DNA of 64,000 nucleotides from a virus (Duplodnaviria > Caudoviricetes), in IMG/VR virus record IMGVR_UViG_3300021387_000661, positions 224,001 to 288,000 of that record; one strand, written 5' to 3'. The position numbers and the translations under genes were made by a program. Below, piece after piece: positions 12,104 through 27,955 of the stretch (position 1 is the first letter of the stretch; each line of letters starts with the position of its first letter). Under the pieces are notes generated by a model. It was given only the letters and a program-made list of their open reading frames with translations. It made no database searches and was not told the DNA's origin.

Positions 12104-12127
12104 CAAAGTTAGTTCATTGAAAATATT

Positions 12128-12293
12128 GCCCTGGTGGTGGAATGGTAGACACGAGGGACTTAATTAGCAGAGTAAACTGTCTTAAAAAATCTTGTTTGGA
12201 AAATATAGGAACTTTGACAGGTTCAAATCCTGTTTCCAGACCAATCCCTTGGCCTGCAAGGCCTTGCGGGTTCGACTCCCGCCCGGGGCACCA
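12128..12293 (+). tRNA. tRNA-Leu(TAA) interrupted by 79-nt insert (12164-12242)
   Basis: Leu-type D and variable arms; removing the insert gives AGGGA ctTAAaa TCCCT; encoded CCA. Confidence 0.85.
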
Positions 12294-12355
12294 ACATAGT
12301 TGATTCTGACTGTTGTCAGACTTGAGGTTAATGACAGGACCTTCAACTATTAAAT

Positions 12356-12434
12356 GCGGGTGTATCGCCACTGTCTTATACACAGTCATTAACAGCGTAA
12401 TTGGTGTATGGGGGTTCAAGTCCCTCCACCCGTA
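12356..12434 (+). tRNA. D-armless tRNA-Ile(TAT) with long variable region
   Basis: GCGGGTG/CACCCGT acceptor; ACTGT ctTATac ACAGT; normal T arm. Confidence 0.7.
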
Positions 12435-12629
12435 CAAGCTTATTTGAAACAGCACTGGTACAAGGATCCATACCAGTAAAGATGAGATGGTAGCGCTGAA
12501 GTCTACGAACCTTAACAGGAAGTATCCGGATTCAAACTCCTGTCCTGTGTTACGGAACCAGTCTGGGTCACCAGGGTTTAATTGGGATGGAAACACCCAA
12601 GGAAGAGAAACCACCTTATGCTGTTATAT

Positions 12630-12701
12630 GCTTCCATAGGTCAACGGATAGACTGACTCTCCCCTAAAGAGTAGATACATGTTCAATTCATGTTGGGAGT
12701 A
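12630..12701 (+). tRNA. tRNA-Arg(CCT)
   Basis: ACTCT ccCCTaa AGAGT (C33). Confidence 0.8.
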
Positions 12702-12713
12702 CAAAACATAAAT

Positions 12714-12787
12714 GGCCCCTTAGCTCAGCGGATCAGAGCAACAGCCTTCTAAGCTGTGGGTCCTGCGTTCGAATCGCAGAGGGGTCA
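12714..12787 (+). tRNA. tRNA-Arg(TCT)
   Basis: ACAGC ctTCTaa GCTGT. Confidence 0.92.
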
Positions 12788-12807
12788 CAAAAAAAGTTTA
12801 AAAGATA

Positions 12808-12834
12808 ATGAGACAGTATAAACATAAACAGTAG
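12808..12834 (+). CDS. Leader peptide 3 (MRQYKHKQ) upstream of two tRNA-Lys(TTT)
   Basis: A-rich initiation context, two AAA codons, followed by mutually exclusive helices. Confidence 0.6.
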   Translation: MRQYKHKQ

Positions 12835-12885
12835 TTGTGTTGGTATCATCCAGAAAGATGAGACCAACCAAGTCATATATGGAAA

Positions 12886-12960
12886 GGTCTCGTGGCGCAA
12901 CTGGATGAGCGCACCTGTCTTTTAAACAGGGTGTTATGGGTTCGAGTCCCATCGGGACCA
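12886..12960 (+). tRNA. tRNA-Lys(TTT)
   Basis: CCTGT ctTTTaa ACAGG. Confidence 0.9.
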
Positions 12961-12969
12961 CAAGGTATT

Positions 12970-13042
12970 GGCCTTGTAGCTTAGATGGTAGAGCACCACC
13001 CTTTTAAGGTGGGAGTCGTGGGTTCGAGCCCCACCGGGGTCA
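12970..13042 (+). tRNA. tRNA-Lys(TTT)
   Basis: CCACC ctTTTaa GGTGG. Confidence 0.9.
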
Positions 13043-13267
13043 CAAAGATTAAAGTTTGAAATATATGGGTGGCTTGCATGCAGTTCTTGATAAGTCAGAT
13101 ATAGTACTTACTGATACTGTCTTGAACCAGAGTAAAAAGACCGGTACCTGATTGCAATAAGTTCCCACCCACCCTTTACCTGACAGGTCGAGCGTGATAT
13201 GGTCGCCTGTATTCACCAGACGTGGAGAAGAGACATTGAAACTCTGTCAGGTTTTTAATAGATTATT

Positions 13268-13624
13268 ATGGAAAAGAAACCAAAGATAAAGTGGAAGAAT
13301 TTTAAAATCTGGATCAAAGACCAGTTCAAGAGGAAGACCTGGTTCAGAAACTTTTTCATCACTGGGAATGCCTGGGGAGGGTTCAGTATCAACTCTCACA
13401 TCAACCAACATACAGGTGAACCAAAGATAACATACAATCATCTTGAATCCGCCCAGAAGGCTGCTGACAAGATGGGACAGAAACACAACACACACTTCAG
13501 TGTTTACAAGTGTCTTTACTGTGATGGTTATCATATTGGAAAGAACAGGGAGAACAAGACAGATTATGACAAGAAGGTAGTTACAAATGTTGAAGTAAAA
13601 GACAAGACTTTAATACTTAAATAA
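13268..13624 (+). CDS. Hypothetical basic protein with YKCxxCxGYHIG zinc motif
   Basis: ORF translation. Confidence 0.7.
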   Translation: MEKKPKIKWKNFKIWIKDQFKRKTWFRNFFITGNAWGGFSINSHINQHTGEPKITYNHLESAQKAADKMGQKHNTHFSVYKCLYCDGYHIGKNRENKTDYDKKVVTNVEVKDKTLILK

Positions 13625-13625
13625 G

Positions 13626-14078
13626 ATGAACACACTTGAAAATACAATTCAGAAGGATCTGGTTCAGGCAATGAAGAACCATCAGGAACACACTGTTGCA
13701 GCATTGAGGTCTGTTAAGACTGCCATTATGGAAGTGAAGACCGCTGCCAATGGTAAGAAGGATTTGGAAGATGGTGACATTGTGAAGATCATCCAGAAGT
13801 TAGTTAAGCAAAGGAAGGAGAGTATGGACATCTATTCCCAGGCAGGTAGGCATGAACTTGCAGACAATGAGCAGCAGGAGATGTTTGTGTTGATGAACTA
13901 TCTTCCAAAGATGCTCACTGAATCAGAGGTGGAGGAAATTGTTGTGAAGACGATCGCAGACCTTGGTGCAACCTCAATGAAAGATATGGGAAAGGTGATG
14001 GGATTCATCAATAAGACTTATGCTGGACAGGTGGATGGTTCTATGGTATCAAGAATTGTTAAATCTAAATTAGGATAA
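13626..14078 (+). CDS. yqeY: GatB/YqeY domain protein
   Basis: AMK..LRSVK, KLVKQRKES..Y..AGR.ELA..E, YLPK, DMGKVMG. Confidence 0.9.
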   Translation: MNTLENTIQKDLVQAMKNHQEHTVAALRSVKTAIMEVKTAANGKKDLEDGDIVKIIQKLVKQRKESMDIYSQAGRHELADNEQQEMFVLMNYLPKMLTESEVEEIVVKTIADLGATSMKDMGKVMGFINKTYAGQVDGSMVSRIVKSKLG

Positions 14079-14491
14079 TATGGCAAAGTTTGTTGTTTAT
14101 GCTCATGACAAGACTGATGTAGAATCAAATCTCATCTATGTATGTACCTGTGACACCAAAAATATGGCAAAGAGTATTACAAGTGCTATGAGGTTCAGGG
14201 ATTCCGGTGGAAGGAATGATGGGTCGGGTTTATATGATTATTATGTTAGAAAAGAAGATTGGATAGTATGAAAACCTGGATTATAGTTTTAGCAATTGTA
14301 TTTGTTGTTTTAAAGTTAGTTCAGCGGTTTCTTGCAAACTATATCAGAAATGACAGATTGGAAAGTGTAAAATACTACTTTCTTGATGGTGCAACAACAC
14401 TTGGGGTGATACATGGACTTGTTTCTTTATTTTGTATATTGGTTGGTTGTACAGATTTGATTTTATTGTTTATTTATTTGTTGAATTTAGT

Positions 14492-14983
14492 ATGAAGAAT
14501 ATAGCATTGGTTGCCCATGATGGAAGAAAGAAAGAATTGATGGAGTGGGTAAGGTATAATTGGGAAACTCTTTCAAAGCATAATTTATATGCAACTGGTA
14601 CAACTGGAAAATTGATTAGTGGTATTGAAGTGGATCTTGGATTTGGTGGTGGAGAAGGAGTTTATAGGAGACAGATTGAGTATCCTTTGAGGAGTAAAGT
14701 AACATGTCTCAAATCTGGTCCACTTGGTGGAGATCAACAGATTGGAGCAATGATTGCAGAAGGAAAGATAGATGTATTGATATTTTTCTGTGACAATCTC
14801 ATTACACAAGGTCACCAGACAGATGTGTCTGCACTTACCAGACTTGCATCACTTTATAATATTGCATTTGCAACAAACAGGACAACTGCTGATATGATTC
14901 TTACATCACCATTGTTCAATGATGAAAATTATAAGATGATTGTTCCTGATGTGATTGAGAAATATAAAAACAGACAAATTTAA
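14492..14983 (+). CDS. mgsA: Methylglyoxal synthase
   Basis: IALVAHD, ATGTTG, SGPLGGDQQIG, H.TDV.AL.R, ATN.TAD. Confidence 0.95.
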   Translation: MKNIALVAHDGRKKELMEWVRYNWETLSKHNLYATGTTGKLISGIEVDLGFGGGEGVYRRQIEYPLRSKVTCLKSGPLGGDQQIGAMIAEGKIDVLIFFCDNLITQGHQTDVSALTRLASLYNIAFATNRTTADMILTSPLFNDENYKMIVPDVIEKYKNRQI

Positions 14984-15083
14984 TAAAAACATAAATATTT
15001 TTATCTGGGATTTGGAAAATAAAATATTTTTTGTTATATTTGTATTGTTATTCAGAAAGAGTTCTTTGAATTTAGAAATATAT

Positions 15084-15420
15084 AGGTCTTGTTGATGCTT
15101 TCAGGAAAGACTGTAGGACAAGGGTTCGAGTCCCTTCAGGTCCACAAATAAACACACTTAAGTCATCGGAGTACGCCTCTGTAATGATTGAGGAATTCAC
15201 TAAACGGTGTGGAAAATCAGGTTGAGTAGGCTTCGTATCTCAACCAACTTTGGGCCTGCCTGGTTTTGACTGCTTTTGAGTATGGAGAGTGGAGAGGTCT
15301 ATTGCCAATAACTGGCAAAAACAACGGTTTCTCTGTAAACTTTGGCCCTGTCGCACAGACAGCTACTCCAAAGGCTATGGTTGCTTTCGCTTAATTGCAG
15401 GCTTGAACATAGTAGATCTT
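15084..15420 (+). ncRNA. ssrA: Circularly permuted (two-piece) tmRNA; tag frame 15314-15394
   Basis: T-arm/acceptor 3' strand (GGAC..GGGTTCGAGTCCC..CAGGTCCA, ends 15144) precedes the 5' strand GGGCCTG..TTTTGAC (15252); G3.U70; resume context ATAACT-GGC; outer ends approximate. Confidence 0.85.
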
Positions 15421-15505
15421 TCACCAGGTGGATGATCCAGAGGGTTTCTCATTCCATCTTTCCAAATAAGATGGATACTTTGAAAGTTCTTTATAATAAA
15501 TATTT

Positions 15506-15681
15506 GGCCAGGTAGCTCAGCTGGTTTAGAGCAGCGGACTGTATAAGGAGTGGTTTACCGAAACAAACCAATCTGGTATAGTTTAATGGCAAAATGCCTC
15601 GGGTCGTAGATGATGGTGGTTCGATTCCACCTACCAGATCTAATCCGCGGGTCGTGGGTTCGAGTCCCTCCCTGGCCGCCA
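15506..15681 (+). tRNA. tRNA-Asn(GTT) interrupted by 98-nt insert (15543-15640) containing a tRNA-like fold
   Basis: Removing the insert gives GCGGA ctGTTaa TCCGC; G73; CCA. Confidence 0.85.
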
Positions 15682-15683
15682 AA

Positions 15684-15763
15684 GTACATAGGATGTAAGT
15701 GCACACATATGTTGGGTTCGGGTATGATTAACCCACAGAGGTTTGAGTCCTCTCTATGTACCA
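15684..15763 (+). ncRNA. tRNA-like RNA without a canonical anticodon loop
   Basis: GTACATAG/CTATGTAC stem, T-arm AGAGG tttgagt CCTCT. Confidence 0.5.
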
Positions 15764-15800
15764 AATATAAGTTCTTTGAAAAATAAAAACTTCATACAAT

Positions 15801-16071
15801 GGAGGAGTGGGAGAGTGGTTTATTCCAGCGGTCTTGTTAATTCGAGTGCTTCCAGAGGAATCTGGAAAGTAGAATTCCCCTAATTCGGTGGAACCTTAAC
15901 AGGTAATGCTGATGGTAATACCGAGCCAATGTTTAAAGACAGTGTGTAGAGACTTTACAGGGAACATCCAGAACGGATGAAGATAAAGTCCAGACCACAA
16001 TATGAAAGTAATGTGTGTAAGGAAAACCGCCGCTCCGAAAGGGGCCGTCGGTTCGAATCCGGCCTCCTCCG
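15801..16071 (+). tRNA. tRNA-Ser(TGA) with group I intron
   Basis: Spliced loop GCGGT ctTGAaa ACCGC; long variable arm; G73. Confidence 0.88.
15836..16021 (+). mobile_element. Group I intron (IC3-like, ORF-less, 186 nt)
   Basis: 5' exon ends in U, intron ends in G; P/Q/R/S-like AATTCGGTGGAAC, AATACCGAGC, GTAGAGACT, AAGATAAAGTCC. Confidence 0.88.
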
Positions 16072-16137
16072 CTAAATATACAAATTTCAAAAAAGTTTGT
16101 TATATTTATTAAGGTTTTGTTATGTGTTTGTTTGTTT

Positions 16138-16203
16138 AAAGATTCATACCGCAACAATTAAAAGCTCAAACTGATAATTTGATTACTTTCTTTTGAATCT
16201 TGT
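16138..16203 (+). repeat. AAAGAnnCATACCGCAACA...nnTCTTGT hairpin element (second copy 18481-18546)
   Basis: Two copies with compensatory closing stems (AAGATTC/GAATCTT; AAGAACC/GGTTCTT). Confidence 0.7.
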
Positions 16204-16259
16204 TTTCTTTAACAAACATAAATTTAACCAGGCTTTTATAAACAATTAATAATTAAAGT

Positions 16260-16886
16260 ATGAAGAAATTTTTAGTATTTCTTATGAGTATTATGCTCAT
16301 GATTGGTGTGAGTGCATGTACTTGCTCCCAGCAGAAGAAAACTTCTGAACTAAAGGCTGGTGAACTGGTTGTTGAGAATGTCATCTCCCTTGACCGTCAG
16401 GCAATGAACCTTGCACATGGTGGTAATTACAGGTGGTTTGAGACTGGTGTTCAGCTCAAGAACTTCCTTGATGAGGAAAATGATGGTACCATTGATTTGG
16501 TTGTCAATGTTTTCCAGGTAGTTGAGGAGTATGATTCTACAAGTTTTGATACCTTTGTTTACAAGTATCAGCACTTCTCTGATGGTTCATTTAATGAGGA
16601 AGGTGTTCATGGTTTCTGGGTTGAAGATTACCCTCTTGAGAATGAAGCAATCAAGGTAACCTTCAAGGAAGCTTTTGAAAAGGTCCAGGAAGTTAATCTC
16701 CCTAAACCTCACACCCGTCAGGTAGTATTGAGGAAGCAGGTTGGTCCTGTTGAGGCAAATCCTCAGTGGATTTTTGGTAACCTCCATTCACAGATTTATG
16801 TTGATGCTGTGACTGGTGCAGTTTCAAAGGACAATCCTGCATTCAATGGTCTCAATCTTGGTACACCTCTTGGTGAATGGCCTTAA
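16260..16886 (+). CDS. Putative lipoprotein
   Basis: Hydrophobic signal peptide with lipobox-like VSAC. Confidence 0.7.
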   Translation: MKKFLVFLMSIMLMIGVSACTCSQQKKTSELKAGELVVENVISLDRQAMNLAHGGNYRWFETGVQLKNFLDEENDGTIDLVVNVFQVVEEYDSTSFDTFVYKYQHFSDGSFNEEGVHGFWVEDYPLENEAIKVTFKEAFEKVQEVNLPKPHTRQVVLRKQVGPVEANPQWIFGNLHSQIYVDAVTGAVSKDNPAFNGLNLGTPLGEWP

Positions 16887-17097
16887 TAGAAATCGGTGAG
16901 GTAGTTAGTTTTGCACTCTCGTCATAAATAAAATGCAGACTTGGCAATCTGGAACAGACAGATATTACTATGATGTGACAAGGAAGTGGAATACTTGCGC
17001 CACGAGATAATATCAGATGGAGGAAAGAGGAAGGGTTCTTCGTAAAAGTTGCCCAATAGGGAATGGAGGTTCGAGTCCTCCCATCATAGCCAAACAT

Positions 17098-17172
17098 TGC
17101 GGGGTAGACTGGAGAGGTTCCAGCCCGGTCTCATAAGCCGGTCCACGTGGGTTCGAATCCCACCCACCGCTA
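17098..17172 (+). tRNA. tRNA-Met(CAT), initiator-like
   Basis: CCGGT ctCATaa GCCGG; 1:72 mismatch. Confidence 0.82.
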
Positions 17173-17321
17173 CTAAATGCCAGTATAAGACAGTATATAT
17201 GTAAGTTCAACTCTTACTATTGGCGCAAAAAAATACAAAATATTTTCATAAATATTTGGATATTTCAAATTTTTTTGTTATATTTGTATTGTTAAGTTCT
17301 TTGATAAATATTGTAAAAATA

Positions 17322-18395
17322 TAAGGGTGGGTTTCTCATCCTTCCTGTATCCTTCGGGAGAAAGGAGAAAGATAACCAGTGAATACATAAGCTGGGAAAG
17401 TCAGTGTGGCGCAATCTTGCCCCTGGCGGAGGAGTTTTCCTCTCTACAAGAAAACCAAGGCAGTCAGCATATCCTGGAATGGCAGGACACTGTGAAAGGG
17501 ATATGCGGGGGTTCTTACCAAGTCTCCTTGAGTGGTAACACTGACAAGTGCTGTTTTGCTTCCAGACAAGAAGATTACCAGTCTTATGGTTTGGATGACC
17601 AAAGTTTATTGATGTCCAAAAGGAATTACCAGATTCCTCTAACAGGTGGTGCTGAGATCAGAAATGGTTGGATGTTAGAATGAGTAGAATGAGTAACACA
17701 GCGGTGTGTGAAAATAGAAAGGCGATGTATCTAACCCTCTCAAAAGGAGGCAGGATAGCAAGGGCAACCTCGTCTTTCAAATGGTAGAGTGCTAAATGAT
17801 TCATTAAAGATTATGACCAAAATGATCAATAAAAAATTATTAAGCAAGCAAAAGTGTTGCCCACACTACAGGACAATATGGTTATGCTTCTGTGATATGA
17901 AGCCTTATGGAACTCGCAAGGTGAAGTAAGAGTATTGTAAGTAGGGACAATGCAAGAGGAGGCATCCTCTTAACTCGGCAGAGGTCTTTGGCTTGAACAC
18001 ATCTATATAATGTAGTGTAGTGACTGTGGTAGTCTTGGTGGAAACACCATAAATCCATCCATATCCTCCTTACCAGTAGCGATGCTGGTGTGTATAAACT
18101 CTGGGCGACCAGGGCTTGTCCTGAAAGGGAAGAGAACAGGAGGCGATTAGGGTCAACACTCAGCCCCAATCAAACAAAAATTTATTCAGTGTCAGTAACC
18201 AGTCTGGTATGGAAGAGCGAGACTTCCCCGAATAACAAAAGTCATTTCATAAAGGTACAGAACCTCTGCGAAATAGAACCACAAGGAGGGTTTTCCAAGG
18301 CCAGGGACTTGACTTGAAACATACTTTCTTGGGTTCTAAAGGAAGTTGAAGAGTGAGTTTGCATTCAGTCTATGAGTGGTTTTATCTCTTCATCC
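17322..18395 (+). ncRNA. Large structured ncRNA (about 1.07 kb), possibly GOLLD-like
   Basis: No credible ORF, raised GC, many short hairpins, own promoter plus boxA, abuts tRNA-Asp; family assigned from size and context only. Confidence 0.5.
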
Positions 18396-18397
18396 AT

Positions 18398-18472
18398 AGT
18401 GCGTTAGTTCAGCCTGGTTAGAATGCCACACTGTCACTGTGGAGGTCACGGGTCCGAATCCCGTACGCACTG
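18398..18472 (+). tRNA. tRNA-Asp(GTC)
   Basis: CCACA ctGTCac TGTGG. Confidence 0.92.
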
Positions 18473-18706
18473 CAAATGGTAAAGAACCATACCGCAACAT
18501 TTGAATGAAATACATTTTTGGGTTATGTAGCAATTTTGGTTCTTGTTTTTCCTTGTTTAGCAAAACAAGGTGGTGGAGTTGGGTGGAAACACTGTCCTCT
18601 GTGAGTGGTAATCTCACATAAATAACTTACCATTTATTTTGAAATTTTAATTTACATAAATATATTAGAAAGTAATTTACATAAATACTTTAAAAGAATA
18701 AAAATT

Positions 18707-18829
18707 ATGATGACATTGCATACACATATGGTATTTGCTGCTATTGCAGGTAAGCCAGGTTGCTACCGTTTTTGGGAACAACTCGGACAGAAGGGTGTGT
18801 GTATGTCATCTGAAAATGAAAAACAATAA
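18707..18829 (+). CDS. Leader peptide 2 (MMTLHTHMVFAAIAGKPGCYRFWEQLGQKGVCMSSENEKQ)
   Basis: 40-codon uORF; same ATG ATG ACA TT start and tandem upstream boxes as leader 1; alternative helices with the terminator. Confidence 0.75.
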   Translation: MMTLHTHMVFAAIAGKPGCYRFWEQLGQKGVCMSSENEKQ

Positions 18830-18883
18830 GTGGAGACCATTATAGGAGAAAGGTTAAAACTTAAACAAATATAGAAGAACGAC

Positions 18884-18923
18884 ATCTCACACAAATCACA
18901 AAAAGGTTTATGTGAGATTTTTT
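18884..18923 (+). terminator. Attenuator terminator 2
   Basis: ATCTCACA...TGTGAGAT stem plus T-run, 10 nt before tRNA-Pro. Confidence 0.78.
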
Positions 18924-18932
18924 AATTTATAT

Positions 18933-19008
18933 TGGGTAGTGCGGTAGTTGGTCACCGGCTGCATTTGGGATGCAGACATTCACGCAGGTTCGAGTCCTGT
19001 CTACCCAA
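18933..19008 (+). tRNA. tRNA-Pro(TGG)
   Basis: CTGCA ttTGGga TGCAG. Confidence 0.88.
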
Positions 19009-19018
19009 CAAAGTGAAT

Positions 19019-19093
19019 GGGCTGGGTAGTGTAATCTGGAAGCACATCACTCTGGCAGAGTGAAGGATGGGGTTCAAATCCCCCCTGTGTCCA
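19019..19093 (+). tRNA. tRNA-Ala(GGC), non-canonical acceptor stem
   Basis: TCACT ctGGCag AGTGA; G3.U70. Confidence 0.7.
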
Positions 19094-19115
19094 CAAAGAT
19101 AATAAAACAAAGTTT

Positions 19116-19358
19116 ATGGAGACACTCAAACAGATTGTAAAAGGTAGTGCAAAATTGGACTGCATCAAGAGTGGTGGTGTTGCTGAATACATCATTACAT
19201 CAGAAAGCAACAACAAATATATGTTGGAAATAGATTTATCTGATAAAGTTGATTGTGGAGAGAGTGCATCATTTATGCCTTTTTATGAGAAAGCTATAAT
19301 TCTTATGCGATGGATTCGTCGTGCGATGGATAAAGGTGAATTAATTGAACTTTGTTAA
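19116..19358 (+). CDS. Hypothetical protein
   Basis: 80-aa ORF with AT-rich leader. Confidence 0.7.
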   Translation: METLKQIVKGSAKLDCIKSGGVAEYIITSESNNKYMLEIDLSDKVDCGESASFMPFYEKAIILMRWIRRAMDKGELIELC

Positions 19359-19420
19359 AAAAATACTAAAAGATTTGGAAGTTTCAAATATTTTTGTTAT
19401 CTTTGCAGTAGAAAATAAAT

Positions 19421-19495
19421 GCTGGGATATCTGCTAGTGGTCCAGGCGATGTGCCTTTCAAGCATGTGACACGGGTTCGAATCCCGTTCCCAGTA
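19421..19495 (+). tRNA. tRNA-Glu(TTC), atypical
   Basis: TGTGC ctTTCaa GCATG. Confidence 0.72.
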
Positions 19496-19654
19496 CAAAG
19501 GAGTGAAGGGAAAATCCAACCAACACTTCACATAGAGCGAAACAGAACCTGATAATGATTCCTGCTGAAGGATAAGGCAAGGTGAAGATAGGGGTTCAAT
19601 GAGGTTGAAATGATGCATGCTCAAAGTAAACAATATATAATGCTCGACAATTAT

Positions 19655-19732
19655 GGAGCTGTCGTATAGGTGGTTATTGTACAATGGACTGAAAATCCAT
19701 AGGCAGTGGTTCAACTCCACTCGGCTCCACCA
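19655..19732 (+). tRNA. tRNA-Phe(GAA)
   Basis: ATGGA ctGAAaa TCCAT; CCA. Confidence 0.85.
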
Positions 19733-20255: not shown

Positions 20256-20430
20256 CAAAACAAATGCCGGTTTATCACAGTATATTGGTGACTGTGGCTG
20301 CCCTGTACAGGTGGGTTTGACTTCAAGTGAAAGTATACAGCTCGAGACAATGTATATGAGTAAAGGTCAGATATGGGTTTGGTTCGATTCCCCCGATGGC
20401 ACAAAGTTCTTTGAATTGTTATATTTAAAT

Positions 20431-20507
20431 GGGCCGGGTAGTGTAAAGGTTTAGCACGTCACACTTGCACTGTGACAGAGGGGTTCGAATCCCACCTGTG
20501 TCCACCA
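20431..20507 (+). tRNA. tRNA-Ala(TGC), non-canonical acceptor stem
   Basis: TCACA ctTGCac TGTGA; G3.U70; CCA. Confidence 0.72.
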
Positions 20508-20608
20508 CTTATTACCATATTATCTTTCAGAGAAATGGTTGACTAAAACTCGCAGACTCATCCGGTAATTGGTTGTAAAAGTGCAGTTAAAGGTTAGATG
20601 AGTATTTT

Positions 20609-20682
20609 GGGCTTGCATGTACCAAGGTTGGCGGAACTCCCTTGCAAGGAGATCGTGGAGGGTTCGATTCCCTTCGGGTCCA
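20609..20682 (+). tRNA. tRNA-Ala(TGC), atypical D region
   Basis: CTCC ctTGCaa GGAG; G3.U70. Confidence 0.7.
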
Positions 20683-21118
20683 CAAAACAGGTGAAGTTGT
20701 CATACATATAAGCCTGTTTCACAAGTTCAGAAGGTGATGCATACACACTGACTTGTCGGCATATGAGAGTGTCGGAGACACACAGAAGTGGAAACCACAT
20801 TCAGGATTGAATTGAAGTGCAAATAGATTCTTTCTGTTAGGATGAAGGTCTGCCGGACACAAAGCTCGCCAGGAAGATTACCCTGGAAATACTTGGTTCG
20901 ACTCCAAGATATGCTACAAAATCACAGAGTGCCCAGAGCATTGAAGCATTGAAGGTATGATGCTTTTGAACAAGTTTGAACCCTGTAATCGAAAGAGGGC
21001 AATGCAGCAAGCAATACTTTGTGAGATAACAACTTTTCTATGGTATCATATAGAGGTTAGTATGGCGGTCATTCAGTGCTGCAACAGAGGTTCGATTCCT
21101 CTTACCATAGCAACATTT

Positions 21119-21210
21119 GGGTAGGTAACGGCGCTGGACTGTAAATCCAGTCTGAACACAAATTGTCGTATTGGCCTTGCAGTAAGGGGGTTCGAGTCCC
21201 TCCCTACCCA
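21119..21210 (+). tRNA. D-armless tRNA-Tyr(GTA) with long variable region
   Basis: GGGTAGG/CCTACCC; CTGGA ctGTAaa TCCAG. Confidence 0.7.
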
Positions 21211-21217
21211 CACAAAT

Positions 21218-21291
21218 GCGGAGTTAGTTCAACGGTAGAATGTCAGCCTTCCAAGCTGAATATGAGGGTTCGATTCCCTTACTCCGCTCCA
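21218..21291 (+). tRNA. tRNA-Gly(TCC)
   Basis: TCAGC ctTCCaa GCTGA; U73; CCA. Confidence 0.92.
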
Positions 21292-21376
21292 AACTGTGGG
21301 TGTAGTGTAATATTATAGATTCAGCACACAGGGGATACCCTGGAATGATGGTATGAAATCCATCCACTCATAACAT

Positions 21377-21451
21377 ACCGATGTAGCTCAGTTGGTGGAG
21401 AGCGACAGATTCATATCCTGTAGGTCATTGGTTCGAACCCAATCATCGGTA
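21377..21451 (+). tRNA. tRNA with CAT anticodon (Met or Ile2)
   Basis: ACAG a-ttCATat-c CTGT. Confidence 0.8.
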
Positions 21452-21464
21452 CATATAATTAAAA

Positions 21465-21635
21465 ATGATATTATGGATAACTGTGGGGCTAAAAGAGTAT
21501 CTGTTTAATGAGTGGAAATATAATGTACACAAAAGATACTTGAAATACTTTGATGAATGGTATGACAATCTTCTGGATTCCCAGAAAGAATTTTACAAGA
21601 GTTGGATGGAAGGGTATATGAGTCCATATCATTAG
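21465..21635 (+). CDS. Small hypothetical protein (56 aa, below ORF-track cut-off)
   Basis: MILWITVGLKEYLFNEWKYN...SPYH fills the gap between tRNAs. Confidence 0.55.
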   Translation: MILWITVGLKEYLFNEWKYNVHKRYLKYFDEWYDNLLDSQKEFYKSWMEGYMSPYH

Positions 21636-21664
21636 GTCTTTGAAATGTTGATTATGAATTATAT

Positions 21665-21755
21665 AGGTCGGTGGCCGAGTGGTTGAAGGCGGCGGTCTCC
21701 AAAACCGTTAGGATATTTTGAAAAATCCTCGAGGGTTCGAATCCTTCCCGGCCTG
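21665..21755 (+). tRNA. tRNA with CCA anticodon (Trp) and long variable arm
   Basis: GCGGT ctCCAaa ACCGT; AGGAT..ATCCT variable hairpin; G73. Confidence 0.8.
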
Positions 21756-21763
21756 CTTAAGAT

Positions 21764-21835
21764 TGAGGTATGGTGTAATGGCCAGCACCTTGGATTTTGG
21801 TTCCAATAGTCCAGGTTCGAATCCTGGTACCTCAA
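21764..21835 (+). tRNA. tRNA-Gln(TTG)
   Basis: TTGGA ttTTGgt TCCAA. Confidence 0.9.
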
Positions 21836-21843
21836 CAAAAAAT

Positions 21844-21917
21844 GTCGGGTTGGCCGAGCGGTCAGGTCCTGGTCTGCAAAACCAGTTAGATTGGTTCGAC
21901 TCCAATACCCGACTCCA
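21844..21917 (+). tRNA. tRNA-Cys(GCA)
   Basis: CTGGT ctGCAaa ACCAG; U73; CCA. Confidence 0.92.
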
Positions 21918-21920
21918 TTT

Positions 21921-21992
21921 GCCCCTGTAGTGTAATGGATCGCACACAGCACTACGGATGCTTTAGAGAGGGTTCGAGTCCTTCCAGGGGTA
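21921..21992 (+). tRNA. tRNA-Arg(ACG)
   Basis: AGCA ctACGga TGCT. Confidence 0.88.
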
Positions 21993-22113
21993 CAAAATTA
22001 TAAATATAATAGATGGTCTTTGACGAAAGAATCGTATCGCAGTTGAGCTTTGTCCTCACTGACAGAAACGTAAGTCTGGGGTGTACTACAAGCCTGTGAT
22101 TGTAGTATTTTTT

Positions 22114-22185
22114 GCGGCATTCGTATAATGGTTATTATACCAGCTTGCCATGCTGGGGACGGGAGTTCGATTCTCCCATGCCGCT
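22114..22185 (+). tRNA. tRNA-Gly(GCC)
   Basis: CCAGC ttGCCat GCTGG. Confidence 0.9.
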
Positions 22186-22193
22186 CTCAATAT

Positions 22194-22270
22194 GGTGACT
22201 GTGGCCGAGTGGTTTAGGCGCAACACTGTGGATGTTGTTTACGTCAGTTCGAGTCTGACCAGTCACCCCA
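22194..22270 (+). tRNA. tRNA-His(GTG) with encoded G-1
   Basis: CAACA ctGTGga TGTTG; G-1:C73; CCA. Confidence 0.92.
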
Positions 22271-22280
22271 AAAATAAAGT

Positions 22281-22988
22281 TATGGAAAAGGTAGTAAGAT
22301 TTTTTAAACAAGATAATAAGTGGTATGCAGATATTCCAAACCACACTCTTGAAGAGAATGAGATGGTAATGGGTGCAGATATTGCTCTTGAGTATCTTGC
22401 AGAAGAGAGGAAAGAGTTACACATCACATTCACAGATGAGAATCCAGGATGGAATGTTCCTCTGGCACTCACTCTGAAAGATCATGATGATGAGGGTGGA
22501 TACTATGATGTATCAGGAATTCTCTTTATGGATTTTATGCTCACTTATGGTAAAGAGTTCATTGGAGTCAAACCACAGGTTTGGATTTGTAATGTTACAC
22601 ATGATGTATTTGGTGAACATCCAGAACACATTTACATCACAAAGATTGAATCAAAACATTAGTTATGGACAAAGATTTTAAGAAGAGGTTCTTAATGAAC
22701 CGTGATGAGACAGGTAGGTTCATTGTCAAGTCAATGAAGACTGGTAAATCCTATTATGTTGAAGCAATTGATGGTGACGAAAGGACTATCTGGGGAGATG
22801 TGGATCCAGTAACAAAAAAGTTGACAGGTAGTTATGGTGACAAGTACAAGGGAAGTATCAGACCTGAACAGTCACTTATTACCAATGAGAATGGGTTTGA
22901 CAAGATTCATACTCTTGGTCCTGGGGAATCACCATTGGATTATATTAACAGGATTGATGATGAGTACTTTGAAAAGATGAGTAAATAG
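22281..22988 (+). CDS. Two hypothetical proteins (22281-22662, 22665-22988)
   Basis: First ORF most likely starts at MEKVVRFF, after tRNA-His. Confidence 0.65.
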
Positions 22989-22996
22989 TTTTTTGG

Positions 22997-23078
22997 GGGA
23001 GAGTCGCATAGTGGCAATTGCAAGGGACTGTAAATCCCTCGCCTTCGGGCTTCAGAGGTTCGAGTCCTCTCTCTCCCA
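22997..23078 (+). tRNA. tRNA-Tyr(GTA)
   Basis: AGGGA ctGTAaa TCCCT; long variable arm. Confidence 0.92.
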
Positions 23079-23193
23079 CAGCCTATCAACCAAGTTGTTG
23101 AAAAGGGTAACGGATGCGCAGCGATTGCGGATCTTGCAAGTTTTTCGCCAGGGTTTCCTTGGTCTCTTTGAGATGAATAAATCTTGGATTTAT

Positions 23194-23275
23194 GGGGGTG
23201 TGGTGGAATGTAGACACCCCAGACTTAGGATCTGGTGCCAGTAATGGCGTGAGGGTTCGAGTCCCTCCATCCCCA
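23194..23275 (+). tRNA. tRNA-Leu(TAG)
   Basis: CCAGA ctTAGga TCTGG. Confidence 0.9.
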
Positions 23276-23410
23276 CACTGACACTACTCTATGAGTAGAT
23301 GTCTTGGTTGGTCACAATACTGTAATTGTGATAGTCCTCTGGGACTTAAAAGAGTTGCAGTGATGCAATCTGTCAAGGTCAGTCTGGAACCAGTTAATCC
23401 AGACATTTAT

Positions 23411-23493
23411 GCAGCAGTGGTGGAATGGTAGACACGCTACTTTGAGGGGGTAGTCTGGGCAACTGGGTGTGAGTTCGAGTCTCACCTGCCGCA
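23411..23493 (+). tRNA. tRNA-Leu(GAG)
   Basis: CTACT ttGAGgg GGTAG. Confidence 0.88.
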
Positions 23494-23501
23494 CAAAACA
23501 T

Positions 23502-23574
23502 AGCGGTATAGCGCAATTGATAGAGCATCAGATTCTGGCTCTGAAGGTTGGGAGTTTGAACCTCTCTACCGCTA
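23502..23574 (+). tRNA. tRNA-Gln(CTG)
   Basis: TCAGA ttCTGgc TCTGA. Confidence 0.8.
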
Positions 23575-23676
23575 CAAACAAAAAAGGGTGGGTCAACCAG
23601 GTAAAGGCAGGGTAAGTCTCTGGTTCTTCTCTGATGATGGCGCAAGTAGTCAGAGTTTCTTAAATTACCCATATAT

Positions 23677-23751
23677 GGGTGTGTAACTCAGTTGGTACAG
23701 AGTACCTGTCTGATACACAGGAAGTCGATGGTTCAAGTCCATCCACACCCA
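23677..23751 (+). tRNA. tRNA-Ile(GAT)
   Basis: CCTGT ctGATac ACAGG. Confidence 0.88.
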
Positions 23752-23760
23752 CACAAATAT

Positions 23761-23835
23761 GGTCCTGTCGTCTAGTCTGGCCAAGGACATCACCCTCTCA
23801 AGGTGGAGACCCGGGTTCAAATCCCAGTGGGACTA
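23761..23835 (+). tRNA. tRNA-Glu(CTC)
   Basis: TCACC ctCTCaa GGTGG. Confidence 0.88.
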
Positions 23836-24400
23836 CAAAAAATATTTCAAATTTATTTTGAAATTAAAAATATTTTTGTTATATTTGTATTACAAAAAAG
23901 TTCATTGACATATAATAAGTGATGACTACATAGACATAATCAATGCCACAATGTTGAGCTCTTGAGAATATGGCAGATAAAAGTCTTTAGACAAACTCAA
24001 CTATGGTCATCACTAAATTATAAGAACAGCAAGATGGGGTACTGATAATCTTCACACAAGGAGTTCTAGATTGAGGGTGTGTGAAGGAAAGGTATAAATA
24101 TTGTTAAAGAGGAATACCTGACCCCTGTCCAATTGTGGCAAGTGGAGAAATATGGATTGTCTATCTGGGGTTCTCCTGTCCTCTGACAACAGTGACTACG
24201 GAAGTCTGTTGTGTTCTTTTATTATATTGAGAATCCAAGGTGGGTGCTTTTATAGAATACTCTCTTAAAATGGATAGAGAGGAAAGAAGTGTAATATAGG
24301 TGAAGTTTCTTAGTTGTTACACATCCTGGTGATGGGGAATGTCATCACGGTGAGACTTCAAGAAGGTGACTACGGAAATCCTTTTGTTCTCAATTTCTAT

Positions 24401-24483
24401 GCCCGAGTGGGGGAATGGTAGACCCAGCAGACTCAAAATCTGCCGTCTGCAAAGACGTGCGAGTTCGACTCTCGCCTCGGGCA
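24401..24483 (+). tRNA. tRNA-Leu(CAA)
   Basis: GCAGA ctCAAaa TCTGC. Confidence 0.92.
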
Positions 24484-24849
24484 CAACAGTCCATCCAGTA
24501 TTGAGGATAAGGTAAACTTGAAAGTACAGGAAAATTCACCTTGTTCAGCGGTTGCCGATACGCAATATATAAGGACCACACAAGTAGTACATTGCAGTTG
24601 AAACATTACCCGACATAGAGACTACATAAGAAATGTGCTTTATTGGATTTGAGACTGTAAAAGAAGGGTGAAGTACAAACCCTGTTCAGTTATGATGGAA
24701 TAACCAAAGTCCAATGGCAGGGAGGGATATAATGGTGTGAAGTTGCTATTCACCATATTTAAAATTAAAAAAAGATAAAACAAATTTGGATAATTCAAAA
24801 AAAGTTGTTATCTTTGTATTGAAAGTTCATTGATATTTGTTGTTTTATA

Positions 24850-25445
24850 TTTGGAAAGTTTCTGACCTGGATTAAACCCTCATTATTGGTAGGGGAATTA
24901 AGGGACTAAACCCAACCACAAGATAATGTCCTGATGTGACAGAAGTCCTGTAGTTTTTATCTCTGTGGGTAGGTTGGCTTTGTATAATAATACCACAGCA
25001 GAAATAAGTTTCTGGTCTTAAACAATCCATACGTTTTATGATGGGGTTCGTAAACCTAACCATTCGCATCTTTTGGAAAGATGTGTTACCGTGCCGTGAA
25101 ATTCGGAGGAGTCAATTCCACAGACCAACAGAAAGAATGTACACATTGCTTACAGTTGGTCAGTGCTGTGCCCACCCAGCGAGGTTGTTATGCAGTTTAT
25201 CAACAGGGTGTGGGAAAAGTGTATGAGAGAAGACTGAATGTTCCTGGACAATGGTGTTGGAATCTGGGATAAAACAAAGAGTAGGTTGGATCAAGAAGAG
25301 AACTGGTAGGAGTTACTGTGACTTTCTGATGTTTGTCCATCAGAAAACCAGGGAAGATAATGGACACCAATATGGCAAGAGATTTTTGATAGGGATTCAC
25401 AAATCAGTGAGGTGGCCATGCACCTATGACAACACTGATTTACTT
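24850..25445 (+). ncRNA. Large structured ncRNA (about 600 nt), possibly ROOL-like
   Basis: No credible ORF; many hairpins; own promoter and boxA; abuts tRNA-Glu; family assigned from size and context only. Confidence 0.45.
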
Positions 25446-25447
25446 AT

Positions 25448-25519
25448 GGCGGGTTCGTCTATCGGTGAGGACACCAGATTTTCATTCTGGGAAGAGGAGT
25501 TCGATTCTCCTACCCGCTA
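25448..25519 (+). tRNA. tRNA-Glu(TTC)
   Basis: CCAGA ttTTCat TCTGG. Confidence 0.9.
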
Positions 25520-25639
25520 CAAATAAAAGTTGAAATGGAAGAAGAGTAACATTCCATATCCACTTAATGATTGAGTTTGTAAGAAAGTACTTTGAGACTG
25601 ATGCTTCCTACTGTACAGATTTCAACTTTTTTAGAAAAT

Positions 25640-25743
25640 TGCGGGGGAGTGAAACGGATAGGAACTCCTGAAAGGGTTGTTCAAAAATCATATCAGGCCC
25701 ATAACCTGATGATACTGGCTTCGACTGCCAGACCCGCTACCAA
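25640..25743 (+). tRNA. tRNA-Met(CAT)-like with a hairpin inserted in the D loop
   Basis: TCAGG ccCATaa CCTGA; T arm CTGGC/GCCAG; CCA. Confidence 0.62.
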
Positions 25744-25769
25744 GTATTAATTTAAAAATAGGTTTAACA

Positions 25770-25910
25770 ATGGCAGTTATTAAGACAGGTTCAACCTCAA
25801 GGAGAGAGGTGAAACACAAGAAGCGCCCTGGTATTGTCTCCAAGTGTAAGACTTCAAGGAACAAGAATTCCAAGCACTATGTGAAACCTTACAGAGGTCA
25901 GGGCCGATAA
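25770..25910 (+). CDS. Small basic protein ending KPYRGQGR (46 aa)
   Basis: MAVIKTGSTSRREVKHKKRPGIVSKCKTSRNKNSKHYVKPYRGQGR; AT-rich leader. Confidence 0.7.
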   Translation: MAVIKTGSTSRREVKHKKRPGIVSKCKTSRNKNSKHYVKPYRGQGR

Positions 25911-26052
25911 AAATACAGGTTAGAAGGCGATGGTTATTCCATAATGGTTGTGTACAGACCGGTGGAGACCTTCTGTGAAAGTCAGACGTGAAAGTAAACG
26001 AAATGAGTTCTCAGGGCAGCTGTGCCGAAGGATTATAGAAAACAGCACTTAT

Positions 26053-26128
26053 CGGGGTGTAGCTCAGTTGGTAGAGCGGGTGGTTTGGGACCATCAGGTC
26101 GCACGTTCGAGTCGTGTCACCCCGACCA
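26053..26128 (+). tRNA. tRNA-Pro(TGG)
   Basis: GGTGG ttTGGga CCATC; CCA. Confidence 0.9.
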
Positions 26129-26325
26129 AAATATGGCCTGGTGGGCAAATGGTAAAGTCACCCCTGAATGATGGGGGAGGTGTGTAATAAGGGTTACCTG
26201 ACAGTGCGGAGTAACAGTGTCGCGAACTGCCAAAGGTTGGGTACAAGAATAAGCACAGGTCTGGAGGTATTCGCGATGCCAAAGGATGAATGCGGGTTCA
26301 ACTCCCGTTCGGGGCCACAAATTTT

Positions 26326-26400
26326 GGGAGGTTAGCTCAGTTGGGTCAGAGCATCTGGTTTACACCCAGAGGGTCATAGGTTCGAATCCTATATCTCCCA
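26326..26400 (+). tRNA. tRNA-Val(TAC)
   Basis: TCTGG ttTACac CCAGA. Confidence 0.92.
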
Positions 26401-26750
26401 CAAACAACTTTGAGTATGACAGTATATGATACATGTTAAAGGCTGGAGGAAAGAAGTTGTCAGAACCTATAGTGGTGAAGCAAAGGTGAGATTCCTTTGT
26501 GGAGAGTGGTCAAAACAATACCAGACGGTAGAGATGGGGAGTTCGAGTCTCCTTAGGTTCGCAAAGAGTGCAGTGTCAATCTCCCGTTGGGGCTGGGGTG
26601 AGACCTCTTAAAATAGAGTGAAAAAATGAATTAGCTCCACCAATACAGTTATTACTAATCTGTGAAAGTAATCGTCTTGAGTTGACGGTGATGGTTGAGT
26701 TTGAGGAAACGTTCCAGGTTCGAGTCCTGCAACCATAACAAAAAATACTT

Positions 26751-26905
26751 GCCGAGGTAGCTTTAATGGTAGAGCACCTGACTTCTACAGATTTATCCAC
26801 TGTGACGGATATTGGGTAATATGGGAGAAGAAGTCAACTTTTACGTCCGAAGCGTAAGTTATCCACGTAATCAGGGGGTTGCAGGTTCGACTCCTGTCCT
26901 CGGCT
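26751..26905 (+). tRNA. tRNA-Thr(TGT; CGT possible) interrupted by 82-nt insert (26785-26866)
   Basis: Removing the insert gives CCTGA ctTGTaa TCAGG; Thr-type GCC..GGC acceptor. Confidence 0.82.
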
Positions 26906-26960
26906 CAAACAAAGATTTTAGCCTGTTAGTTAAAATCTATATAAAATAACAATCAAATTT

Positions 26961-27581
26961 ATGTCAAAATTTATGAAAGAAGAAGACCGTGAGCAGCAGA
27001 TAAATGATTTGATGCTTGCAATTAGAAGGAACACACAGGGTTCCAAATGTATTGATGTTTTTGAAAATCTCTTGAGAGAGATTCCAGACAAGAATGTTGT
27101 AGATACAGTTATTGTTGATACACACCGTTTTATTACAGAGTTTTCCAGGTTGTGTAAAGATGTTGACAATATGAAAAATTTGGATTATATTGCCAGGATT
27201 CTTACATATGATTTCATTCAACCAAAAAGATATTTTTCAAAATCAAGGAAGAATGCACAATTGTATTTGATGATGAGTGATATGCTCACCACTAAATACA
27301 CACATCCAATCTTTGATGTTGAGAAAAAGATTCAACTTCCAAATGAAAATTTCATTGGGGATATTTATCATAAGGAGATTTTCTCTGCGAATGATATCGT
27401 AGAAGTATTTAAATACTTTGGAGATCTTTCTGGTTTGTCTGTTGAGAAAGTGAAGGAGAAGATGGAACTTGCAAGAAAGGTTGTCCTCCTTTACAATTAC
27501 CAACCTGCCATTGTGAAGGCACTCATCCAGACAAAGAGAAGGGGACTTAATCTGGATAAGAACTCAAAAATGTTTAAATAA
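26961..27581 (+). CDS. Hypothetical protein
   Basis: 206-aa ORF. Confidence 0.7.
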   Translation: MSKFMKEEDREQQINDLMLAIRRNTQGSKCIDVFENLLREIPDKNVVDTVIVDTHRFITEFSRLCKDVDNMKNLDYIARILTYDFIQPKRYFSKSRKNAQLYLMMSDMLTTKYTHPIFDVEKKIQLPNENFIGDIYHKEIFSANDIVEVFKYFGDLSGLSVEKVKEKMELARKVVLLYNYQPAIVKALIQTKRRGLNLDKNSKMFK

Positions 27582-27654
27582 TTAACAAACAATCAACTAA
27601 CAGGCAAAATTTTTGTTATATTTACATAAATAACCTAATGTTATTTGGAATAAT

Positions 27655-27727
27655 GGGGGATTAGCTTAGTTGGTAGAGCGCAGCCTTTGCACGGCTGAGG
27701 TCAGGGGTTCGAATCCCCTATCCTCCA
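27655..27727 (+). tRNA. tRNA-Ala(TGC), canonical
   Basis: CAGCC ttTGCac GGCTG; G3.U70. Confidence 0.93.
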
Positions 27728-27752
27728 CAAAATTGAGTTCTTTATATTCTAT

Positions 27753-27904
27753 GCCGGAGTAGCTTTAATGGTAGAGCATCTGACTTCTACAGAGTGGTTT
27801 CTGAAATAAACCTTGGGTAGAATGGGAGAATGATTATACAAACGTCCGAAGCGTTATCTACTCACGTAATCAGAGGGTTGTCGGTCCGAATCCGGCCTCC
27901 GGCT
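27753..27904 (+). tRNA. tRNA-Thr(TGT; CGT possible) interrupted by 79-nt insert (27787-27865)
   Basis: Removing the insert gives TCTGA ctTGTaa TCAGA. Confidence 0.82.
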
Positions 27905-27955
27905 CTTAATTGGATAGAAATCTTGTTAATTTCTGTCTTTTTTTTTATAACTATT

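Follow-up and report, generated by a model that had tools for sequence, protein, structure and literature searches.

In a 64,000-nt stretch of viral DNA (hereafter the window, which corresponds to bases 224001–288000 of IMG/VR record IMGVR_UViG_3300021387_000661), four tRNA genes, one each for Leu(UAA) and Asn(GUU) and two for Thr(UGU), are interrupted within the anticodon loop by inserts of 79–98 nt that follow one common design. The explanation that we favor, and hold tentatively, is that these inserts are RNA-level introns of a phage-specific, sporadically distributed, and probably mobile family of the kind published for Lak megaphages, and that they are removed by proteins and not by their own catalysis. 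The design consists of a variable base followed by U-A and a helix (S1), a leader of approximately 26–31 nt, a tRNA-like domain with a 13-bp acceptor/T stack, and one final C. The source is a single viral contig of 344,746 bp (34.7% G+C, CheckV completeness 94%), and DNA nearly identical to it is contained in animal gut metagenomes, chiefly those of ruminants.

The boundaries of the four split genes were established by three concordant approaches. The Rfam tRNA model (gathering score 29) aligns from its first to its last position over 12128–12290 (39.6 bits), 15506–15678 (48.6 bits), 26751–26905 (50.2 bits), and 27753–27904 (46.2 bits). ARAGORN, with introns allowed, places inserts of 79, 98, 82, and 79 nt in the Leu gene, the Asn gene, and the first and second Thr genes (Thr-1 and Thr-2), respectively, and deletion in silico of 12164–12242, 15543–15640, 26785–26866, and 27787–27865 yields canonical tRNA-Leu(UAA), tRNA-Asn(GUU), and two tRNA-Thr(UGU) molecules. 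These results agree with the inserts of 79–98 nt described at the same positions in a first-pass annotation made from the sequence alone, as do the differing insertion points, which in anticodon-loop numbering are 36/37 in Leu, 35/36 in Asn, and 34/35 in both Thr genes. All exons lie on the plus strand and are supported by the tRNA model and the spliced form. The Leu gene comprises a 5′ exon at 12128..12163, which ends at position 36, and a 3′ exon at 12243..12293 with a long variable arm and an encoded CCA; the Asn gene comprises 15506..15542, which ends at position 35, and 15641..15681; Thr-1 comprises 26751..26784, which ends at position 34, and 26867..26906; and Thr-2 comprises 27753..27786 and 27866..27905. 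In the case of Thr-1, a 28-nt exon probe retrieved insert-free tRNA-Thr genes from three viral contigs (L002, L003, and L004) that are base for base the joined Thr-1 exons, and the insert is therefore fixed at 26785–26866 without any sliding. This presence/absence polymorphism between identical exons is also a property of Lak-type introns.

The first-pass annotation had pointed out that no other Asn, Thr, or Leu-TAA gene occurs in the window, and the ARAGORN prediction extends this statement to the entire 344,746-bp genome, in which the 38 tRNA genes of the phage serve 18 amino acids if the split ones are left out and 20 of 20 if they are counted. Its remark that the corresponding codons occur in the leaders also holds, since two short open reading frames (ORFs) at 11432–11503 and 18708–18829 include TTA, AAT/AAC, and ACA codons. 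The two split Thr copies, read directly from their sequences, show compensatory substitutions relative to each other in three stems (acceptor, anticodon, and T), which indicates selection for tRNA function. Because the split genes fill the Asn and Thr gaps of a tRNA set that is complete in all other respects, have intact exons, and in the Thr pair have diverged in a compensatory manner, they seem to be used, as the first-pass annotation had supposed.

The main structural feature of the 5′ part of the inserts, which had been missed in the first reading, is a pseudoknot located directly at the 5′ junction. The intron begins with a variable base (N1) followed by the invariant U2 and A3, and bases 2–6 pair with a segment approximately 10 nt downstream to form S1. 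In the Asn insert and both Thr inserts, the S1 partner is situated in the loop of a second hairpin (S2), which results in an H-type pseudoknot; S1 remains a plain hairpin in the Leu insert of the window, in the family member L302, and in the introns of Lak phages. The 5′ module of the Asn insert occupies 15543..15570 (covariance model R2, 34.7 bits; pair counts on alignment A5), with S1 at 15544–15548/15558–15562 and S2 at 15552–15556/15565–15569. The corresponding stems are S1 at 26786–26790/26800–26804 and S2 at 26794–26798/26807–26811 in the Thr-1 insert (26785..26866; model R1, 97.6 bits, with fold and covariation), and S1 at 27788–27792/27801–27805 and S2 at 27796–27800/27808–27812 in the Thr-2 insert (27787..27865; model R1, 93 bits), near-identical copies of which were found in L308, L322, and L327. 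The Leu insert (12164..12242), recognized by its sequence, its fold, a tRNA-Sec-type match, and its likeness to a Lak Phe intron, consists of N-U-A, the S1 hairpin at 12167–12170/12177–12180, an A-rich linker, a helix at 12194–12202/12233–12241, and the final C at 12242.

Comparison of 22 distinct 5′ modules supports both helices. S1 pair 5/18 is A-U in 11 modules and G-C in the other 11, and is unpaired in none; G-C is fixed at 6/17, 4/19 has C-G in 19 modules and A-U in one, and pair 2/21 is U-A or U-G throughout, and all five S2 pairs (5/5) show changes on both sides. In a covariation test, 0 of 500 shuffles reached the observed score, and sliding the partner strand by a single column lowered the pairing from 89% to approximately 40%. 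The modules of L337 and L331 are identical save for one exact compensating change, of which L302 supplies a U-A version. U2, A3, A16, and A22 are invariant and C23 is mostly conserved, and A3 is retained though it is mismatched in 14 of the 22 modules. The S1 and S2 helices together form a stack of approximately 12 layers, counting the N1xA22 mismatch, and A-C follows.

The 3′ part of the inserts is a tRNA-like domain, the terminal helix of which starts at intron base 27–32 and carries changes on both sides at 7 of 7 pairs, with 95% of the cells paired in an alignment that was model-fitted, which favors structure. The degree of resemblance to tRNA varies. The Asn insert contains a nested cloverleaf with its final C (15571..15640), and the Rfam tRNA model (RF00005) matches this domain at 15572–15639 with 44.8 bits, above the gathering score of 29; its terminal helix is 8 bp long, its T-loop is TTCGATT, and its last base is C15640. 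The domain of the Leu insert gives a weak tRNA-Sec-type alignment with a 9/4 stack (18.5 bits). The two Thr inserts possess a reduced or "mini" form, which is composed of a terminal helix of 7–8 bp, the segment A/UAUGGGAGAA, a variable stub, and the T-like arm ACG-UCCGAAG-CGU. In Thr-1, the helix is located at 26813–26820/26858–26865, with GGGAGAA, the T-like loop at 26846–26852, and the final C at 26866; in Thr-2, the helix is located at 27814–27821/27857–27864 and the final C at 27865.

Despite these differences in form, the spacing between the T-like loop and the 3′ junction behaves as a ruler. Of 22 mini-type members, 21 have a spacing of 14 nt, and the same value is seen in the Asn and Leu inserts of the window, where, as for all cloverleaf-type members, the helix and tail counts were made by eye. 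The value resolves into 5 + 8 + 1, namely a 13-bp acceptor/T stack followed by one unpaired base. The last intron base is C in every member, including those collected with a probe that made no demand on this base and the four published Lak introns. The features listed in the first-pass annotation, namely nTA..GA(G/T) starts, a terminal acceptor-like stem that encloses a T-loop-like hairpin, and a single C before the 3′ exon, are all present in the sequence, and the motif reported to be shared by the Asn and Thr-2 inserts is also found, with a one-base gap.

A search with covariance models had been suggested in that annotation, and two such models, together with pattern scans and a scripted search, revealed among viral and metagenome contigs a coherent family of approximately 30 distinct inserts built to this design. 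As judged from the sequences, its recurrence in some 30 inserts with compensatory changes is far beyond chance. The family inserts are 78–109 nt in size and reside in tRNAs for Met/Ile(CAU), Arg(CCU and UCU), Asn, Leu(UAA), Val(UAC), Gly(UCC), Thr(UGU), and Lys(UUU); their insertion points span 33/34 to 36/37, an exon consensus is absent at the junctions, and in silico removal restored a canonical tRNA fold with the expected anticodon in 28 of 28 genes tested. The members were collected with probes derived from the window, and subtypes that lack the probe motifs are consequently under-sampled. Loose DNA patterns for the 5′ module retrieved mainly chance matches in coding DNA, and the genuine ones among the matches listed were L005 and L276. 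The spread is sporadic: among 47 viral contigs that share the RNA ligase described below, the 5′ module occurs in the two closest relatives and perhaps in one more. The mini-domain pattern gave 39 matches in 185,579 bacterial and archaeal genomes, none of which lies in a tRNA, and the family thus appears to be restricted to phage-like DNA as far as the mini-domain probe reaches.

A close relative (L473, G007:C1 ~72108–72250) carries a homologous Asn intron with a larger nested domain, which ARAGORN calls as a complete class II tRNA-Ser(aga); on account of this call, the nested domains seem to be derived from real tRNA genes of different classes. The mini module was also observed in two further contexts. 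A genuine group I intron in a phage tRNA gene (L335:3753–3996, minus strand; RF00028, 60.6 bits) contains the succession of stem, AUGGGAGAA, hairpin, ACG-UCCGAAG-CGU, and stem, which recurs at L350:2320–2373 (minus strand), within a non-coding stretch of approximately 700 nt between tRNAs.

Introns of this kind have been reported previously. Devoto et al. (2019, Nat Microbiol; PMC6784885, Fig. 4 and Table S6) described "enigmatic" tRNA introns of Lak megaphages that had no Rfam match and occurred as presence/absence variants, and noted that one of them "may encode a tRNA". The observation was repeated for jumbo phages in a 2026 survey (PMC13037316). Both reports provide sequences only, and a structural model, a boundary rule, and a mechanism are absent from them; our literature search for the mechanism or structure of such introns found no paper describing one. 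Inspection of Table S6 by eye showed that its Phe, Gly, Thr, and "Tyr" introns consist of N-U-A with a hairpin, an A-rich linker, a tRNA-like domain, and one final C, and the 5′ hairpin of the Phe intron differs from that of the window Leu insert by a single base. Like the Lak introns, the window inserts are located in the anticodon loops of phage tRNAs, match no Rfam intron or ribozyme, and contain a tRNA-like domain. Unlike the Lak set, three of the four window inserts have a pseudoknot, both Thr inserts have the reduced domain, and the window phage, with its 344,746 bp and 34.7% G+C, is not a Lak phage. The proposal of a new class in the first-pass annotation must hence be given up, and because the Lak introns obey the same grammar and no structural or mechanistic paper was found, the inserts are better described as a known but unexplained kind of intron. 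What is new here is the recognition of the pseudoknot and mini tRNA-like subtypes, the exact boundary rule, the 14-nt ruler, the invariant C, and the 13-bp stack, together with the apparent restriction to phages and the inability of RNase P acting at the tRNA mimic to make the 5′ cut. Under the boundary rule, the gene listed as tRNA-Tyr(GTA) in Lak phages A1/A2 (Table S6, PMC6784885) has the loop CUGUUAA and becomes a tRNA-Asn(GUU) split at 35/36, a rereading that is supported because its class I body fits Asn and not a bacterial-type Tyr.

The phage encodes enzymes that could contribute to intron removal. An RNA repair/tRNA-end cassette of four genes within approximately 7.5 kb is located approximately 7–14 kb upstream of the window (G000:C1 ~210100–217600; L065:7118–14626) and comprises a Pnkp-like P-loop kinase, a calcineurin-type metallophosphoesterase, an RNA ligase of 478 amino acids, and a CCA-adding enzyme. 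The ligase matches PHROG 968 (E 2e-46) and TIGR02306/DRB0094 (Rnl5-type), and has an N-terminal OB domain like that of the Naegleria ligase; ligase homologs are present in two further insert-bearing contigs. Genes for a ClpP-like protease and an F420-ligase-like protein are located in the vicinity of the cassette. Family searches of the phage genome did not find RtcB, EndA, or RNase Z-type proteins, and the search for the T4 Rnl1 family, although it gave no match, is uninformative since the Rnl1 control matched nowhere either. Consequently, of the two ligase types that the first-pass annotation had proposed to look for elsewhere in the genome, RtcB was not found and an Rnl5-type RNA ligase was. 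Its option of tRNA-end processing followed by ligation fits the anatomy of the inserts and the ligase, kinase, phosphoesterase, and CCA-adding genes of the phage. ORFs within the tRNA array (16260–16886, 26961–27581, 28912–30492, and others) gave no Pfam, PHROG, or NCBIfam match naming a nuclease, and because the phage lacks EndA and RNase Z-type genes, protein-dependent removal would need a host enzyme.

Based on the anatomy of the inserts, a possible removal pathway can be proposed. Since the junctions shift within the loop and no particular exon sequence is required beside them, it must be the intron that specifies both cuts. RNase Z-type enzymes cleave after the first unpaired base that follows a 13-bp stack, measured from the tRNA elbow. 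The 3′ half of the intron, as a tRNA mimic with a 13-bp acceptor/T stack, may recruit a host tRNA 3′-end endonuclease of this type, which would measure from the elbow and cut after the first unpaired base, the invariant C, to leave a 3′ exon with a 5′ phosphate. The 5′ junction could be set by N-U-A and S1, which is pseudoknotted with S2 in three of the four window inserts, and a second endonuclease would cut one base before U2-A3, at a site 26–31 nt upstream of the tRNA-like domain. The foremost candidate for this cut is RNase P, which might read the S1+S2 stack as a second acceptor/T mimic; next come an RNase E/G/Y-type cut in the single-stranded N|N-U-A beside the structure and, as the last choice, some other nuclease encoded by the phage. 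The exons would be held together by the pairing of the tRNA body and sealed by the phage Rnl5-type ligase. Rnl5-type ligases seal 3′-OH/5′-phosphate nicks, and the adjacent kinase and phosphoesterase may heal the ends if another end chemistry is produced. Taken as a whole, this would amount to a two-handle, protein-dependent tRNA splicing system of the bacterial world, in which the pseudoknot or hairpin directs a 5′ cut by a host endonuclease (possibly RNase P), the 13-bp mimic directs RNase Z, and the resulting 3′-OH/5′-phosphate ends are joined by the phage Rnl5-type ligase; the same chemistry run in reverse could explain how ORF-less introns spread to many tRNAs at 33/34 to 36/37. In such detail the scheme is possible but doubtful.

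The inserts were compared with known intron, ribozyme, and mobile-element classes. The first-pass annotation had named a match to an Rfam intron or ribozyme family as refuting its proposal. With E values up to 10, no Rfam family except tRNA was matched by the Asn, Thr-1, and Leu inserts, an Rfam scan of 12000–28100 at E up to 1 detected no intron or ribozyme family in the inserts, and models of small self-cleaving ribozymes (hammerhead, hepatitis delta virus (HDV)-like, twister, pistol, hatchet, etc.) did not match them. The positive control, a 186-nt intron of tRNA-Ser(UGA) in the window (15801–16072), was detected with RF00028 (42.2 bits, E 9e-10), and the earlier statement that the inserts lack group I/II cores is thus upheld. 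This Ser intron has an Azoarcus-like core, scores below the gathering score of 50, and is missed by a gathering-score scan and by plain ARAGORN. Several candidates were rejected on structural grounds. In relation to group I introns, the inserts end in C and not G, and the 5′ exon ends in A (Leu) or U (Asn, Thr), or in C/A in relatives; guide pairing of the group I type between exon end and intron can be drawn by eye in some Thr members and is not conserved. A bulge-helix-bulge intron would require complementarity between intron start and end for a central helix, which was not seen by eye, and the family PF01974 is absent from the phage; to our knowledge, EndA is lacking in bacteria. The S1/S2 topology resembles P1/P2 of an HDV-like fold, yet there is no room for P3/L3 or P4. 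Single-strand transposition of the IS200/IS605 type was rejected because the insertion sites have no common target tetranucleotide.

It can nevertheless be asked whether the inserts could be group I introns in an extremely reduced form or bulge-helix-bulge introns of the archaeal type, given that the anticodon loop, including that of tRNA-Leu(UAA), is the classic bacterial group I site, that a real group I intron interrupts tRNA-Ser in the same window, and that one metagenomic group I intron contains the mini module. This explanation deserves hardly any credence: RF00028 does not match the inserts, in comparison with 42.2 bits for the Ser intron of only 186 nt, the terminal base is C instead of G, the last exon base may be U, C, or A, the inserts measure just 78–109 nt, a bulge-helix-bulge cannot be drawn, and the phage has no EndA. 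A new small self-cleaving or self-splicing RNA, in which the 5′ pseudoknot cleaves at its own 5′ edge in the manner of HDV-like or hatchet ribozymes, the 3′ cut is made by RNase Z or a second RNA-catalyzed step, and the phage kinase, phosphoesterase, and ligase heal and seal the ends, would account for a cut site that coincides with the 5′ edge of the conserved structure while the upstream exon sequence is free, for several unpaired bases that do not vary, and for a phage kit that consists of precisely the enzymes that heal 2′,3′-cyclic phosphate and 5′-OH ends. However, known ribozyme families remain unmatched even at E up to 10, the hairpin-only members (Leu, L302, and four Lak introns) possess merely N-U-A and a hairpin of 4–6 bp, which is below any known catalytic core, and a 3′ domain that ranges from a 50-nt mini form to a full cloverleaf suits a protein handle better than an active site, so a ribozyme of this sort is decidedly improbable.

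A more serious competitor, which we still consider unlikely, is that the inserts are never spliced and represent either selfish DNA that silences dispensable tRNA genes or a cassette yielding a tRNA-like RNA (by RNase P and RNase Z, followed by CCA addition) or tRNA halves, for instance as decoys against host defenses that target tRNA. Such an origin would agree with the sporadic distribution, with presence/absence between otherwise identical genes (seen also in PMC6784885), with a tRNA-like domain fully equipped for release by RNase P and RNase Z, and with a CCA-adding enzyme encoded by the phage, and spliced RNA was not seen in the RNA contigs of three metatranscriptomes. It is difficult to reconcile with the perfect cloverleaf and 7-nt anticodon loop that appear after insert removal in every insert-bearing gene, with the compensatory divergence of the Thr exons, and with a tRNA set that lacks no other amino acid and in which Asn and Thr are served by the split genes alone; moreover, the exact 5′ boundary and the conserved module would be pointless if the tRNA-like part alone were the product.

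Protein-dependent removal of the inserts from RNA, the reading preferred here, also has several observations to contend with. Among contigs from three ruminant-gut metatranscriptomes and one DNA run, in which uncovered parts are uninformative, no RNA contig joins the exons with their own flanks. One RNA contig from X17 joins the Leu exons exactly at the predicted site and has a different 3′ flank, for which reason it must stem from another phage, either from an insert-free gene or from a spliced RNA; a contig from X15 skips 12148–12264. A simple RNase P and RNase Z scheme is insufficient, because RNase P acting at the mimic would cut 26–31 nt inside the intron, and recognition of the pseudoknot as an RNase P substrate cannot apply to the hairpin-only members (window Leu, L302, and Lak). 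In the mini type, the T-like stem and the terminal helix are separated by 1–3 unpaired bases, so that its tRNA mimicry is imperfect. A mimic of shape alone, moreover, would not require the invariant C, the invariant U2-A3, and the further unpaired bases that are fixed. The occurrence of the mini module in a group I intron and in a non-coding stretch suggests that it may be a general or portable structural module. Finally, the ligase is far commoner than the introns, with the 5′ module found in only 2–3 of the 47 ligase-bearing contigs, and its presence is therefore not specific evidence.

Several known systems share individual traits with the inserts. Group I introns, such as those of cyanobacterial tRNA-Leu(UAA) and Azoarcus tRNA-Ile, have in common with them the anticodon-loop site, the sporadic spread, and the existence of insert-free alleles, whereas the window inserts lack a catalytic core and a terminal G, do not form a U-G pair at the 5′ junction, and are less than half the minimal group I size. 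In mammalian nuclei, tRNA-like handles such as that of the MALAT1/mascRNA transcript are cut by RNase P and RNase Z, and CCA is added. There, too, an embedded tRNA mimic steers tRNA end-processing enzymes to defined cuts in a host transcript, although the outcome is 3′-end formation and not the removal of an intervening sequence followed by ligation. The T4 Pnkp/Rnl1 pathway and Rnl5 ligases (Naegleria, Deinococcus DRB0094) resemble the proposed system in that a phage kinase, phosphoesterase, and ligase are able to reseal a break in the anticodon loop; however, the T4 pathway is damage repair instead of splicing, and the ligase found in the window phage is common in phages without such introns. 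The introns of archaea and eukaryotes, which depend on EndA and RtcB, correspond to the proposal made here in the protein-dependent removal of a short anticodon-loop intron and subsequent ligation. In contrast to them, the phage inserts have no bulge-helix-bulge, EndA, or RtcB, their junctions fall at 33/34 to 36/37 and not at 37/38, and their recognition elements are wholly intronic.

In textbooks, tRNA introns removed by enzymes characterize archaea and eukaryotes, and bacteria and phages are not known to possess introns other than self-splicing ones (group I or II). If the inserts are spliced, they would represent a third intron route, which would need no ribozyme and would combine an RNA repair ligase with the usual enzymes of tRNA trimming. 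The grammar allows such introns to be found and their boundaries to be placed exactly, makes tRNA gene calls in large phages correctable, as in the case of the Lak tRNA-Tyr(GTA) that becomes Asn(GUU), and supplies precise substrates for in vitro assays. It has a bearing, too, on phage–host conflicts over tRNA, since host anticodon nucleases attack the very site at which these genes are split.

The window as a whole contains approximately 38 tRNA genes, a transfer-messenger RNA (tmRNA)-like gene, and a GOLLD-like RNA. The tmRNA-like gene at 15053–15485 is called by ARAGORN as a permuted tmRNA with a 26-residue tag, and the Rfam permuted-tmRNA model gives 41.7 bits, slightly below its gathering score of 47. 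The GOLLD-like RNA lies within the tRNA array at 17717–18166 (87.6 bits, E 6e-22; gathering score 150), and an exact RNA contig with a depth of 85, from a metatranscriptome of the same sample series, covers 17561–17909 in this region. Two odd tRNAs are located at 21119–21210 and 21665–21755, one of which (37.2 bits) joins a GUA anticodon to a body with a reduced D arm and a long variable arm, while the other is a long-armed, class II tRNA whose anticodon is CCA (Trp). The short ORFs at 11432–11503 and 18708–18829 are situated upstream of tRNA blocks, and each is preceded by tandem TTTACATAAATA elements.

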